A stretch of 64,000 nt of DNA from Escherichia phage vB_EcoM_ESCO50. The notes beneath the pieces were generated by a model, which did not search any database, was not told where the DNA came from, and saw only the letters and a list, made by a program, of their open reading frames with translations. Below, piece after piece: positions 5,857 through 17,857 of this stretch. Location: the sequence record OM386664.1. The stretch is one strand, 5' to 3'. Numbering within the stretch: position 1 is the first letter of the stretch; each line of letters starts with the position of its first letter. The position numbers were made by a program, and so were the translations under genes.

Positions 5857-6368
5857 TTTTAGATTCTCCTAGTTTAAGGCTATTGGGCTTGTTTGCCTGT
5901 CTGATGAAAATACTAAATGACCATATCCAGAGAGTCAATAAAAAATTTTAAAAATATTTTCAGGAATTGCCAGAGAGGAACGGGTGCGCGCGAATACCAC
6001 AAAACAGAACACAAATCAAGAATTATTTTTCAATCCGCTACAAATTTTTCTGTTGACTTTTCTTTTTGGATGTGGTAGCCTTGTGAGAAATGGCGACATC
6101 CCCGCCTAGACCCGCTTACCTGCACAATTCTAAAATGATTTTTCTTGCCCGACCTGATTTTTCTCTGCACGTTTTGAAAATGAAAAAGCTCTTTGGAGAT
6201 TACCTGCACAGTTTGAAAATGAATTTTCTCTTTGGAGTTCAAAATTTTCTCTACAGATTTCTCTATAGAAATATACCTGCACAATTCTGAAATGAAAAAG
6301 CCCTCCTTACCTGAAAAATTTACCAGATAAGAAAGGCTTAGTCTATTGTGAATATTCTACAGAGTTTC
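5857..6368. repeat. Non-coding island with ~4 direct copies of CTGCAC(A/G)(A/T)TT(C/T)TGAAAATGA (~6115-6295) plus CTTTGGAG(A/T)T repeats and a GC-rich patch; candidate regulatory array
   Basis: Repeats read from sequence; track ORFs here (6030-6284, 6090-6290) only translate the repeats. Confidence 0.5.
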
Positions 6369-7154
6369 TTAGCTCTTTGCGTCTAAGAAGGTAACTTCTG
6401 GTGAAGAGAAGATTGCCTCGATATCCTCATCAGTTCTTGCATAAATGTAAGCATCGGCATCACTACCAAATGTCACAGCAATTCTGTGATTGCTCTTCGA
6501 CAGGTGGGTAACTAGAGCGTTACTTAGAGACATCTTTTCAACCGGAGGGTTACTTTGATGTATCTTACCTTTTCTTCGTCTGAAGAGGGTAACTGCGTTA
6601 TCTGTGAACACAACTACACCTGCAAAGTATTCTGGTTCACAGTAGTTTTTCCAACCTGAGTGTAACTCGTTGTACATCTCTGTCTCGTAGACATACAGAT
6701 AAACATCTACACTCTTCATCACCTGATTGATGATAACTGTGACAGCTTGAGGGTCAAGTCCACCGATACCTGCACCAATCATAGGTAAACCAACTTTCTT
6801 CAACTGGTTAACTTCACAGTATCTGTTAAGTTGCTTCAAAGATGACTCTAAAGCACTGTATCGGGCGTCTTTACCAGTCTTAAGCTGAGTGTAAAGGTTA
6901 GCTATACGACCTTGTTTTAAACGTGCTACAGAGAAATTACCCAGTAAATTTTCACAGGGTTTGTGGCCTATACCACCTGCATAGAGGTAAACTTCTGTAT
7001 CGGTCTCATATGCTTTTGGGTAAAGTTTAGAAATCTTGTCAGCGATACCTGCACCCATTAAATTCATACAGTTGCAACCGTGACCAATGATGTCAAACTT
7101 ACCTTTATCAAAGGCGTCAAAGATATCACCATTGATGATTTTTACAATACCCAT
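6369..7154 (-). CDS. Macro-domain-like protein (ADP-ribose binding/processing) with ~100 aa C-terminal extension
   Basis: N-terminal GDIFDA...DIIGHGCNCMNLMGAGIA and later GLPMIGAGIGGLD resemble macro-domain glycine-rich loops; motif recognition only. Confidence 0.45.
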   Translation of the reverse strand: MGIVKIINGDIFDAFDKGKFDIIGHGCNCMNLMGAGIADKISKLYPKAYETDTEVYLYAGGIGHKPCENLLGNFSVARLKQGRIANLYTQLKTGKDARYSALESSLKQLNRYCEVNQLKKVGLPMIGAGIGGLDPQAVTVIINQVMKSVDVYLYVYETEMYNELHSGWKNYCEPEYFAGVVVFTDNAVTLFRRRKGKIHQSNPPVEKMSLSNALVTHLSKSNHRIAVTFGSDADAYIYARTDEDIEAIFSSPEVTFLDAKS

Positions 7155-7355
7155 TTAACATCTCTCCCAAGATTCTTTATCTTCTGAAGGCTTTACACGT
7201 TGCCCTTCGTGGTCTACCCAGATGCACCCACATCCTTCACAGATTACTGGCATTGCATAGCCAGCTTTGAAGTCATCTTCAGTGATAAGACCTTTTAAGT
7301 CACCTGTATCACGTCCAAACATTTCGATAGAACAGTCTTTGCAGAAGTCAGCCAT
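7155..7355 (-). CDS. Small zinc-ribbon protein (66 aa; CKDC...CEGCGC)
   Basis: Two Cys pairs; directly abuts the macro-domain gene. Confidence 0.45.
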   Translation of the reverse strand: MADFCKDCSIEMFGRDTGDLKGLITEDDFKAGYAMPVICEGCGCIWVDHEGQRVKPSEDKESWERC

Positions 7356-8694: not shown

Positions 8695-8715
8695 AAAAAG
8701 GCTCCCGAAGGAGCC
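8695..8715 (-). terminator. Hairpin GGCUCC-UUCG-GGAGCC followed by U-run on minus transcript, immediately upstream of RBS of gene 8328-8675
   Basis: Inverted repeat with UUCG tetraloop and U-tract. Confidence 0.5.
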
Positions 8716-8727
8716 TGTATCTTAACC

Positions 8728-14655: not shown

Positions 14656-16437
14656 TTAAAGCTGCTTGTCAATAATATTTCGAATATCACCAAGAGTTGT
14701 GTAACCGAACTGCTCAGAGTCGCTAAAGACTAAACGTAAAGCACAAGCTGGGTGGTCAAGTACGTCTGCAAAACTCTGGAATCCGTAGCCATCTACAGCT
14801 TTCAGCTTATCACCATCCCACATAGGTGCTACACCACCAAAGGCAGACTTCTTAACACCACTATCTGTTTTAGGGTCTTTTGCAAGCATAATCTCTTTAC
14901 CACCAATGCTTGCAAGAGTTGCTTTGACAGCAAATGCAAAGGTGTCACGAGTCATGTACTGGTAAGTGTAAGAGCCTACACCAAATACTACGTTAGAGCT
15001 TGCAAAACCCATTTCATACAGACGCTTCAGGATTTCGTTTGCACGTTCCAGCGTGATAGAGTCACCATAGATAAGGCCAATGTGCTCATCCAGTACCTTA
15101 AAACCTTTAGAGTTAATAGTTCCTCCAAAGATGTTATACAGAGTCTTAATAGCTCCGTCAATCTCAGCTACAGGACGTGTTACAACGTTTGCAGAACCAA
15201 CCATATAAGCATTTTTCAACATCACTGTGTCAGCAACTTCAAAGTCTTCTCTGTCAACAACCATTTCGTAGCCTTCTGACAGTAGCCATCCAGCAATACC
15301 ATAGTTGATGTTTTCAAGCTTCATGTTCAGAACAGCATTCAACATTGTGTCGCTGGCTTCCAGCTTGCTTAGGTGCTCGTAATAAGCCTTCTTAGCACAT
15401 TCTAAGTGGATTGCTTTATAACCTGTGACAATATGTACAGGGTCTCCAGAGTCAGGACGAATTACCAGTTTGCCATCACGTTCCATAATTTCTTTACGAA
15501 GTGCTGGTAAAATTTCTGACACAGTTCTCCAGAAGTTATAAGTGTCTGAAACAATACTTGCAATACCAGTTGGGTAAGTTTCTGTTAAGAAACGACGGAA
15601 GGTTTGCAACTCACCTTTAAATCGTCTTTCTTCTTCAACCAACTCGTTACCACCTTCCCAAGCAATGTTTGCACACATTACAGAGTGTTCAGTGGCTGGT
15701 ACAGAGCTTCCAATATCAGAGATTGGATAGGTCTGCCCATAGATACGTTTAGCCGTGTATACAGCAGGGAAGCTATCAGTCCCTTTAAAGCTGGTTAAGT
15801 GGCCTACAGCATTGAATGCGTCATCAGTAAAGCCTGACATACCACGCATAGCAAAGTCATGGCACTGATAAGGTAAATGCAAGTCATTGTCGCAAGTAAG
15901 GTCAGCCCACTTCTTACAGATACGTTTGTAGTGTAATGCAATAGTAGCAATGGTGCAAGCTTTCCAAATCTCAGCAGAGAAAGCGTCTTCCAGATAACCT
16001 GCTACCCAATGGAAACCTGAAACAGTGTTCTGGAAGACAATCATTGGGACACGCATAGGAACAACTGTACCTTCTTCTACAGCGTACACTTCAACTGGTA
16101 GATAGCCTAAGTCGTGAAGTGCTTCCCAATGCTCTCGACCGATAGCATCTTTACCCAGAACACCATTCATAACTTCTAAGATTTCGTCAATTGCTTCTTT
16201 TTTATCACGTTCAAAGAAAGTGGCGTTCCAGTGGTCTATCAAGTAATCTTTAACAAAACGTTGAATACCAAAAGCCACTACACCATCAATTGCTAAAGGA
16301 CTGTTAAACCATTTGTCGCTACGTGGTGTTAGGTTCAACATAAGATATTGCGTAGCATCTGGATACTGATATATATGTGATGCCTTGTAAGCATCTGCAT
16401 TAAGACCTGCTGGTACTGCGTAAAGTGACTTACTCAT
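14656..16437 (-). CDS. Nicotinamide phosphoribosyltransferase-family enzyme (NAMPT/NadV-like; candidate Namat of a NARP1-type pathway)
   Basis: HDFAMRGMSGFTDDAFNAVGHLTSFKGTDSF aligns with the NAMPT active-site region HDFGYRG...FKGTD; 593 aa. Confidence 0.8.
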   Translation of the reverse strand: MSKSLYAVPAGLNADAYKASHIYQYPDATQYLMLNLTPRSDKWFNSPLAIDGVVAFGIQRFVKDYLIDHWNATFFERDKKEAIDEILEVMNGVLGKDAIGREHWEALHDLGYLPVEVYAVEEGTVVPMRVPMIVFQNTVSGFHWVAGYLEDAFSAEIWKACTIATIALHYKRICKKWADLTCDNDLHLPYQCHDFAMRGMSGFTDDAFNAVGHLTSFKGTDSFPAVYTAKRIYGQTYPISDIGSSVPATEHSVMCANIAWEGGNELVEEERRFKGELQTFRRFLTETYPTGIASIVSDTYNFWRTVSEILPALRKEIMERDGKLVIRPDSGDPVHIVTGYKAIHLECAKKAYYEHLSKLEASDTMLNAVLNMKLENINYGIAGWLLSEGYEMVVDREDFEVADTVMLKNAYMVGSANVVTRPVAEIDGAIKTLYNIFGGTINSKGFKVLDEHIGLIYGDSITLERANEILKRLYEMGFASSNVVFGVGSYTYQYMTRDTFAFAVKATLASIGGKEIMLAKDPKTDSGVKKSAFGGVAPMWDGDKLKAVDGYGFQSFADVLDHPACALRLVFSDSEQFGYTTLGDIRNIIDKQL

Positions 16438-16451
16438 ATTTTATCTCTCTC

Positions 16452-16943
16452 TTAGTTATGTCTTGCAAACTCACCATGAAGTTCTATTCGCTTTTTAATT
16501 ACAGCTTCTTTTGCTTCTTCTACCGTTTTAAATCTTCCACAAAAGTATTCTTTATAGTAAAGCATGACTCTTGCTTTGTAAAGACCTGTTTGTTTACAAA
16601 AACTTACACCCTTCACACCAGTTTTATTATTCTTGTGTATACCCCTATTTCGCTGATTTTGTGACTTTGTGCTAAGTCTTAAATTCTCCAACTTATTATT
16701 AGCTTTATCAAGGTCTATGTGGTCTACCTCATATCCACTTGGTATCTCACCTCCAGACATAATCCATGCAATATTATGTGCATAGTACCTCTTCTTATTT
16801 ATCTGGACTTGGATATAACCCTTCTTAGACCTTGTGCCAGCCACATTACCAGCAATAGCGGTACTGCAAAGGGTTACTCTCCAAATTAATAAACCTGTAT
16901 CTGGTTCATATATTAGGTATTTTTCAAAATAACCCTTATTCAT
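16452..16943 (-). CDS. HNH homing endonuclease with C-terminal AP2-like DNA-binding domain
   Basis: HNH motif EVDHIDLDKANNKLENLRL; AP2-like TGVKGVSF...YKARV; paralog of 39707-40210. Confidence 0.75.
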   Translation of the reverse strand: MNKGYFEKYLIYEPDTGLLIWRVTLCSTAIAGNVAGTRSKKGYIQVQINKKRYYAHNIAWIMSGGEIPSGYEVDHIDLDKANNKLENLRLSTKSQNQRNRGIHKNNKTGVKGVSFCKQTGLYKARVMLYYKEYFCGRFKTVEEAKEAVIKKRIELHGEFARHN

Positions 16944-16951
16944 ACTGTTAC

Positions 16952-17857
16952 CTAATCAAGGTTTGCTACAGTAACTTTACCATAATGTGTTAAGCCACGG
17001 TCTTTAGCTTCCCCTAAAGAGTTTGTAGTGTAGATATGGTCAATGCCATTGTCAAGAAGGTTTTCAACATCTTTAGAGAAGATACCATGTGTTACATAAA
17101 GTTCCACACGTTTTGCACCTGCTTCACGAAGATGTTTCGCTGCTTCTATGAAGGTTCGACCACCATCACAAATATCATCAAGAATCATGACAGTTTTATC
17201 TGTCAAATCAACATCATCAAGGATTCGCATACCAGTTATTTCACCAGTCTTAAGGTTGCGTACTTTAGACATTGTGATATATGGTTTATCCACCTCTTTA
17301 GCAGTCTCTGCAATCTTCTTAGAAGCACCTGCATCTGGGGCTACTAAGTAATCAATCAGAGGGTCATTTGCATAGTGGACTGCAATCTCCTTTTGAGGAA
17401 TACTTTGGAAGCAGTTGAAAAGGTTATCTGGAACGTAACTATGAGGGTCAACTGCACAGACTGCATCAAAACCCATTGCATTAACCTGTTGTGCAAACAC
17501 TTTCAAAGCTGCTGCATCACCTTTAAACATGTGACGGTCGTAACGTGCATTTGGCAAATAGTAAAAGATAGCAGTCTTCATAGCAAACTTATGAGGTACT
17601 AAATCATCAATTGCTTCTTTAGCAAGTGCCACAGCAAACAATGTGTCCTTGTCATAGCCTTTTACAATAATAACCACATTGTTGATGGATGATGCTGCAT
17701 AAGCAGTAAAATCAACAAGCTCTTGTGAAAAGTGTCCACCAATCTCACCAGAAGGGAACTGGATGATGTTAAACTCTTCTTCATGAGACCCTTTTGTCGG
17801 TGAATGAATTATAACACGAATCGATGTCTTCATAGTTTTCCCTCTCTTTATTCCCAA
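16952..17857 (-). CDS. Ribose-phosphate pyrophosphokinase (Prs)-family enzyme (candidate Adps of a NARP1-type pathway)
   Basis: PRPP-binding loop ILDDICDGGRTF, NARYDR motif; 301 aa. Confidence 0.75.
   Translation of the reverse strand: MGIKRGKTMKTSIRVIIHSPTKGSHEEEFNIIQFPSGEIGGHFSQELVDFTAYAASSINNVVIIVKGYDKDTLFAVALAKEAIDDLVPHKFAMKTAIFYYLPNARYDRHMFKGDAAALKVFAQQVNAMGFDAVCAVDPHSYVPDNLFNCFQSIPQKEIAVHYANDPLIDYLVAPDAGASKKIAETAKEVDKPYITMSKVRNLKTGEITGMRILDDVDLTDKTVMILDDICDGGRTFIEAAKHLREAGAKRVELYVTHGIFSKDVENLLDNGIDHIYTTNSLGEAKDRGLTHYGKVTVANLD

Follow-up and report, generated by a model that had tools for sequence, protein, structure and literature searches.

Macrodomain enzymes have only recently been established as counter-defence factors of phages, with AdfM and Adpp as the named cases. 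AdfM is the name given to Tk.4 of phage T4, where a tk.4 knockout turns sensitive to DarTG2 (preprint 10.1101/2025.11.20.689424), and it is also used for PhiKZ gp104, a chimallivirus macrodomain that strips the ADP-ribose (ADPR) of DarT2 from DNA (PMC13309987). In Vibrio phage Gary, Adpp removes the phosphate of ADPR-1''-phosphate, which is made by the NAD+ phosphorylase aRES, and lets the NAD+-rebuilding pathway NARP1 do its work; mutations in Adpp abolish the phenotype (preprint 10.64898/2026.01.28.702374). NARP1 itself was discovered in phage Bas63. Here we describe a gene of Escherichia phage vB_EcoM_ESCO50 (record OM386664.1, of which a stretch of 64,000 nucleotides, hereafter the window, was analysed) that encodes a 261-aa protein with a macro domain and a C-terminal domain (CTD). 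The macro domain is ordinary and was already annotated; new is its fusion to an orphan, fast-evolving CTD and the exchange of the two as a cassette.

The 261-aa protein is probably an ADPR-1''-bond hydrolase used in counter-defence, to which we assign a rough probability of 0.8. A role of this kind had been proposed in an initial annotation made from the sequence, and it is plausible as the homologues Tk.4/AdfM (DarTG2) and Adpp (aRES) have such roles. The substrate, the catalysis and any binding by the CTD are what we infer for this protein. As to the substrate, we lean slightly towards an AdfM-like reversal of the ADP-ribosylation of phage DNA by DarT2, a tentative choice held at somewhat below even odds.

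The macro domain

The open reading frame (ORF) list of the window and the domain searches give the following layout of the gene:

6369..7154, minus strand: macro-CTD ORF, 261 aa
6684..7154, minus strand: macro domain, aa 1-157 (PF01661, PHROG 335, AlphaFold2 and Foldseek, family invariants, ratio of nonsynonymous to synonymous substitution rates (dN/dS) 0.075)
6369..6683, minus strand: CTD, aa 158-261 plus stop, an orphan beta-rich domain

The window is a Felixounavirus genome. With 4 kb around the locus as query, 257 phage records were hit, mostly at 90-95% identity and with FelixO1 among them. The 261-aa protein shares 97% identity with bas63_0095 of phage Bas63/JohannRWettstein. The macro-CTD gene is a real gene. 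It is present in the NARP1 model phage Bas63 and in about 250 FelixO1-like phages with sequenced genomes, and several of these serve in biocontrol of Salmonella and E. coli.

The assignment as a macro domain stands well clear of chance. Pfam PF01661 (Macro) matches aa 25-141 with E=1e-7 and 32.3 bits, against a gathering cut-off of 22 bits, and PHROG 335 ('phosphatase') matches aa 1-260 with E=1e-113. The AlphaFold2 model, built on 19 homologues, has a predicted local distance difference test score (pLDDT) of 87.8 and a predicted template modelling score (pTM) of 0.87. When this model was compared with the PDB by Foldseek, human TARG1 and the DarG macrodomain were the top matches (template modelling score, TM, 0.78-0.82 on target), followed in the ranking by viral macrodomains and Poa1p, and 207 PDB macro chains matched at E<=1e-3. 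The family profile searched against the PDB gave TARG1 at 4e-11, DarG of M. tuberculosis at 7.5e-9 and DarG of T. aquaticus at 3e-7, and a weak match (6e-5) to Poa1p over the first 60 residues. The sole NCBIfam match is the DarG model NF048014 (E=8e-13), in the macro half. A macro domain had been suspected in the initial annotation from the glycine-rich motifs (NGDIF...HGCNCMNLMGAGIA; GLPMIGAGIGGL), which are present in the 261-aa translation, and Pfam, PHROG, the AlphaFold2 model and Foldseek all confirm it; structure prediction gave the three-layer alpha/beta/alpha macro fold.

Among the 19 homologues H25, G26, N28, C29, N31 and MGAG33-36 are invariant, as are NLYTQ86-90, GAGI127-130, G132 and D134. 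Judged from these alignments, the residues predicted to line the ADPR site are intact, and the putative ADPR-binding loops (Gly-rich loop 1 and loop 2) are conserved together with the Asn close to the distal ribose. Between nine close alleles the macro domain shows a dN/dS of 0.075.

The C-terminal domain

The CTD (104 aa) folds with confidence both in the full model (pLDDT ~80-92) and when modelled alone (pLDDT 79), so that the C-terminal extension of ~100 aa noticed earlier is borne out as a folded, beta-rich domain. In the predicted model, about seven beta-strands precede a C-terminal helix; the topology is PH-like at best, and the domain is predicted to pack in a fixed position on the macro domain (pTM 0.87). 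In the databases searched, relatives of the CTD in sequence or structure were confined to Ounavirinae-like phages. A phmmer search of 1.84 billion representatives and a profile search of 5.8 billion proteins both returned close relatives only, and Foldseek on BFVD hit nothing but the phage SUSP2 member of the family itself.

Within this lineage the CTD is old, because the profiles of the Felix-type CTD and of the CTD from distant metagenomic loci still match (hhalign probability 96.9%, E=1e-10) despite 13-20% identity. These distant loci keep the rIIA-rIIB...macro synteny, and one of them has Namat upstream. Across the family the mean pairwise identity is 30% for the CTD versus 58% for the macro domain, which puts the rate of evolution of the CTD at about twice that of its neighbour. 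In the nine close alleles its dN/dS is 0.165 versus 0.075 for the macro domain. Both domains are thus under purifying selection, and the CTD is therefore functional.

In Erwinia phage vEam_PM_6 (Kolesnikvirus; locus L020, 2498-3280) the orthologous 260-aa 'phosphatase' ends in a tail of the same length, ~100 aa, that hhalign could not relate to the Felix-type CTD (probability 0.3%). From one Ounavirinae genus to another, the macro domain is therefore joined to different tails. In L006, a metagenomic Felixounavirus contig, the sequence on either side of the gene matches the window at ~94-96% identity and a Cys-rich protein encoded next to the gene is 100% identical, whereas between L006 7001-7780 and window 6369-7154 the nucleotide identity falls to 58% (macro) and 48% (CTD), exactly within the ORF. 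In at least this one ~95% identical genome, one allele of the macro-CTD gene has been exchanged for another with gene precision. Exchanges of this sort are typically seen where a gene interacts with host factors that vary. Together, the hypervariability of the CTD, the cassette exchange in L006 and the unrelated or unrecognisable tail in Kolesnikvirus suggest the signature of an arms race.

The CTD is probably a targeting or partner-binding module, a role that fits a hypervariable domain packed in a fixed way on the macro domain. In this position it would act as a fast-evolving specificity or partner-binding module and would steer the enzyme towards either its substrate or a defence protein of the host. 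If so, it could illustrate a way in which a generic ADPR hydrolase gains target specificity in phages.

Relation to Tk.4/AdfM and to Adpp

By tblastn the macro part was found in about 2,800 phage records, including T4-like tk.4 genes at ~34% identity, whereas full-length coverage was obtained in only 257 records. The alignments of the macro domain, which took in 13 and then 19 sequences, show that the motifs H-G/Q-C-N-C, N-L-Y-T/G-Q and I-G-A/C-G are shared by the family. In blastp comparisons the window protein is 35% identical to Tk.4 (E=2e-23), 27% to Gary Adpp (E=2e-13), 35% to another Adpp (E=6e-19) and 34-36% to other macro proteins encoded adjacent to NARP1, while Tk.4 and Gary Adpp are 35% identical to each other (E=2e-23). 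Taking the function from the nearest characterised homologue was considered only moderately telling, as the identities all lie at 27-36% and the key split in the tree has a bootstrap of 71%.

This split was obtained in a neighbour-joining tree, in which the Ounavirinae macro domains are monophyletic (84% bootstrap) and form one clade with the T4-like proteins, Tk.4/AdfM included (71% bootstrap), apart from Gary/phi3 Adpp. Ounavirinae and T4-like proteins also have in common a short loop behind NLYTQ. In the Adpp sequences compared, a longer loop, mostly with YGQY, follows NLY(G/T)Q. The sequence evidence thus leans to the AdfM side, but only moderately.

Tk.4 belongs to the same PHROG 335/Poa1p-like subfamily as the window protein and shares with it the HGCNC, NLYTQ and IGAGIG motifs, the short loop after NLYTQ and the clade in the tree. 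A likeness to the T4 'tk-vs' protein had already been flagged in the original annotation of FelixO1. The differences are that Tk.4 is a single domain of 155 aa, whereas the window protein has the extra CTD of 104 aa, and that tk.4 is located between vs and tk.3 in T4, the only phage for which the anti-DarTG2 phenotype is established. The AdfM-like reading is slightly favoured because of the tree position, the shared loop, the location away from the NARP1 genes and the signs of an arms race in the CTD. According to it, the macro domain would bind the ADPR that a host DarT2-type toxin puts on thymidine in single-stranded phage DNA and would cut the ribose-1''-base bond, by which replicable DNA would be restored. 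If this is true, anti-DarTG2 defence extends to a second major phage group. The AdfM function itself is established only for T4 Tk.4 and PhiKZ gp104. The latter looks unrelated to the window protein; its function is the same as the one proposed here, but it keeps the DarG-like residues N23/K78, whereas the window family has a Gln at the position of the Lys. This residue description suggests that PhiKZ gp104 belongs to a different macro subfamily.

NARP1 in the same genome

An NAD+ pathway that consumes ADPR had been postulated for this genome in the initial annotation, and it is real, as the Adps and Namat genes of NARP1 are present in the window:

14656..16437, minus strand: Namat of NARP1, 98% identical to Bas63 g80
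16452..16943, minus strand: HNH endonuclease gene (HNH_3; weak sub-threshold AP2 match), between Adps and Namat
16952..17857, minus strand: Adps of NARP1, 79% identical to Bas63 g79

The NARP1 operon is split by the HNH gene in the window, whereas it is contiguous in Bas63. The divergence of Adps from Bas63 g79 is concentrated in the N-terminal two-thirds of the protein.

With NARP1 at hand, the macro domain might act like Adpp and dephosphorylate ADPR-1''-phosphate, the product of NAD+ phosphorylases of the RES type (aRES among them), to ADPR, from which the phage's own NARP1 would make NAD+. The arrangement would then be a distal NARP1-AP, with the CTD as a possible tether of the enzyme to Adps/Namat or to the RES protein. 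We regard this as a close rival of the AdfM-like reading, only a little less probable. Its basis is that the window protein is of one family with Gary Adpp and as similar as stated above to the other NARP1-adjacent macro proteins, that NARP1 is encoded in the window on the same strand, and that the sources of aRES systems, E. coli, Klebsiella and Enterobacter, are the bacteria that these phages infect. Moreover, ADPR-1''-phosphate phosphatase activity is generic to many macro domains (discussion of preprint 10.64898/2026.01.28.702374).

Distance speaks against such a role. The macro-CTD gene and NARP1 are separated by ~7.5 kb, with rIIA/rIIB and the spanins in between, and the gene belongs to a unit with terminator-like sites at both ends. 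In Bas63 it is gene 95, whereas NARP1 comprises genes 79-80, and the 15 genes of distance include rIIA/rIIB, a PNK-like gene and the spanins. The genes of characterised Adpp are found at most two genes from Adps/Namat, and the macro-CTD gene is outside the range of two genes by which the NARP1-AP operon is defined. A linkage to NARP1 at the level of the operon is therefore unsupported. The protein itself differs as well: characterised and listed Adpp are single domains of ~150-165 aa, the tree places the tested Gary Adpp together with phi3 Adpp on the other main branch, the loop is of different length, and the hypervariability of the CTD is unexpected for a purely metabolic enzyme.

A published survey found that 15% of NARP1 phages carry such a macro gene beside the operon (preprint 10.64898/2026.01.28.702374). 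Only genes within two positions of NARP1 were included, and because of this Felixounaviruses went unscored; Table S1 of the same preprint contains no Escherichia or Salmonella phage, and Felixounaviruses are absent from it. A distal Adpp role of the macro-CTD gene is neither proposed nor excluded by this survey. If the Adpp-like role is true, the type phage of NARP1 has an unrecognised NARP1-AP, and surveys that use operon proximity undercount such systems. The AdfM-like and the Adpp-like role are not mutually exclusive.

Catalytic residues and the choice of substrate

Several points weigh against the reversal of DNA ADP-ribosylation. The presence of NARP1 in the genome gives an Adpp-like role an obvious use, the 71% clade also includes the NARP1-adjacent macro protein of Acinetobacter phage phiAbaA1, and overall the protein is as distant from Tk.4 as from several Adpp proteins. 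The catalytic Lys of TARG1/DarG (K84/K80) aligns to the invariant Q90, and D125 of TARG1 aligns to G131. Due to these two replacements the 261-aa protein is not strictly of the DarG/TARG1 type, and any removal of ADPR from DNA would have to follow another chemistry. No similarity was found between the CTD and the DarT-binding domain of DarG, and binding of nucleic acid through an RRRKGK basic hairpin of the CTD was dismissed as unsupported, since homologues do not preserve this patch. There is no positive support for binding of DNA or of DarT by the CTD. Finally, the text of the PhageMaP paper on gene essentiality in Bas63 makes no mention of gene 95 or of a phenotype for it. In the HIDEN-SEQ preprint no Felixounavirus was used.

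The replacement of the canonical catalytic Lys by Q90 would also fit a macro domain that only binds or sequesters ADPR-type molecules, with the real activity in the CTD, and some macro domains are indeed readers only (PMC9503650). However, T4 Tk.4 has the same Gln at this position and so has Adpp, for which phosphatase activity has been demonstrated. In addition, the substrate-binding and ribose-proximal residues are all invariant, and the dN/dS of 0.075 reflects very strong selection on the macro domain. A non-catalytic binder is thus very improbable.

Like DarG2, the window protein has two domains with the macro domain at the N-terminus, and its macro half matches NF048014 as well as PDB 5m3e/5m3i. 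However, the whole protein scores 48.3 bits with NF048014 against a cut-off of 250, only profile positions 3-152 of 338 are aligned, and the catalytic Lys of DarG (K80 in T. aquaticus) is replaced by the invariant Q90. The neighbouring ORFs encode small phage proteins, among which no Pfam match to DarT was found.

A further reading is that the enzyme acts on another ADPR substrate. TARG1/OARD1 (C6orf130) is closest both by profile (4e-11) and by structure (TM 0.82 on target), and TARG1 is a protein de-ADP-ribosylase as well as an O-acetyl-ADPR deacetylase. The window protein might remove ADPR that other host ARTs attach to RNA or protein, deacetylate O-acetyl-ADPR, or break down ADPR-derived immune signals such as the cyclic ADPR isomers of Thoeris, and macro domains in general act on many 1''- and 2''-linked ADPR derivatives (PMC9503650). 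However, TARG1 is a eukaryotic enzyme without a CTD, its dyad K84/D125 is not conserved and corresponds to Q90/G131, and no homologue within the subfamily is known for such activities. The published NARP1-associated hydrolase of cyclic ADPR has another fold (RyDEP, with a RyR domain). In GenBank, orthologues are labelled 'putative phosphatase', 'macro domain-containing protein' or, in some records, 'O-acetyl-ADP-ribose deacetylase'; these names are automatic transfers. Taken together, these alternative substrates are improbable.

A bolder reading concerns the CTD and is doubtful. In this case the hypervariable CTD would bind directly to a defence protein of the host (e.g., DarT2 or an aRES-type NADase) as an inhibitor or adaptor, and the protein would mimic DarG with an unrelated fold; in a variant, it would be the missing Adpp of Bas63, with the CTD docking on Adps/Namat. 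As a mimic of DarG, it would perhaps combine enzymatic reversal and stoichiometric neutralisation within one polypeptide, and the L006 exchange and the Kolesnikvirus tail might then reflect an arms race over the CTD interface. As a whole, the macro-CTD gene is an incremental and testable extension of what is known and overturns no current ideas.

Nucleotide-level constraint within the CTD coding region

Part of the fast-evolving CTD is encoded by a stretch that hardly varies at synonymous positions:

~6490-6595, minus strand: synonymous-invariant stretch, codons 186-224, with three AGTWACCCWC motifs

In the nine alleles only 5 of the 39 third positions in codons 186-224 are variable, versus 102 of 222 elsewhere (Fisher p=7e-5), and the synonymous substitution rate (dS) is 0.066 versus 0.35 elsewhere. 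The three AGTWACCCWC motifs are 40-41 nt apart and in different reading frames, and the motif occurs five times in the window where 0.38 occurrences are expected. A pair of motifs is kept in all alleles of Felixouna-, Susp- and Mooglevirus, including the L006 allele with 41% identity, but not in Kolesnikvirus or in the distant metagenomic type.

A conserved RNA structure was rejected as the cause: the single sequence folds well (z=-3.6), but the consensus reaches -6.4 kcal/mol and has no covariation. The search of this stretch against Rfam gave a sub-threshold chance match only. An overlapping ORF was rejected as well, since only non-ATG ORFs of 22-36 aa are present. Possible explanations are protein-binding sites, a recombination anchor for the cassette exchange or localised gene conversion.

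The 66-aa Cys-rich gene and the genomic setting

The following features flank the macro-CTD gene:

7155..7355, minus strand: Cys-rich ORF (CxxC...CxxCxC), 66 aa, PHROG 2210, function unknown
6298..6339, minus strand: terminator-like hairpin with T-run, directly 3' of the macro-CTD stop (consensus scan only)

Both ORFs are located on the minus strand at the positions given in the initial annotation, which described the 66-aa gene as directly following the macro gene. The adjacency holds, but the order is reversed: the 66-aa ORF is transcribed first, and its TAA stop directly adjoins the ATG of the 261-aa ORF. The label 'zinc ribbon' can be traced to the visible pattern of cysteines (C5, C8, C39, C42, C44 and C66); the protein has no Pfam, NCBIfam or PDB match, and the label is based on the pattern only.

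The Cys-rich protein is unusually well conserved: homologues occur in 835 phage records at 55-76% identity and across unrelated phage groups, among them T5 ORF059 (T5-like), Vequintavirus, Pseudomonas phage PaMx35 and siphophages of Pseudomonas and Stenotrophomonas. In the T5-like, Vequintavirus and Pseudomonas phages no macro gene was found next to it. In T5 the gene is placed in the tRNA region, beside HNH endonucleases. Felixouna-, Susp- and Mooglevirus have a 201-nt ORF upstream of the macro gene (identified by its position and length), whereas in Kolesnikvirus the Cys-rich gene is absent before the macro gene. At the metagenomic locus L007 (7810-8001) a different 63-aa CxxC...CxxC protein, apparently unrelated to the 66-aa protein, is encoded in the same position and overlaps the start codon of the macro gene, and at L008 the upstream position is taken by a non-Cys protein. 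The Cys-rich gene was therefore rejected as an obligate partner, being widespread without the macro gene and absent or replaced beside it in relatives. The functional link implied by the initial annotation is unsupported; the Cys-rich gene is a mobile small gene and no demonstrable partner of macro-CTD.

Terminator-like sites at 8716-8699 and 6339-6298 (consensus scan only) bracket a unit of ~2.4 kb with the order spanins, three small ORFs, Cys-rich ORF and macro-CTD gene. The latter is the last gene of the unit, because the hairpin at 6298..6339 directly follows its stop. Downstream of the macro gene, a ~500-bp non-coding gap holds 3-4 copies of a direct repeat of 25-34 nt (minus strand TTTTCATTTyArAAyTGTGCAGGTA) at ~6100-6310, and the same TTTTCATTTCAG is also found after the terminator-like hairpin at 8699-8716. 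The repeat copies at ~6100-6310 are conserved in L006, where the spacers between them have diverged. They may be phage promoters or operator sites.

Felixounavirus sequence was also found inside GU169904.1 (Staphylococcus phage SA1) and MG065664.1 (Campylobacter phage A132), where the Cys-rich protein is 100% identical and the macro gene has 92% nucleotide identity. This is probably due to database contamination or misassignment.

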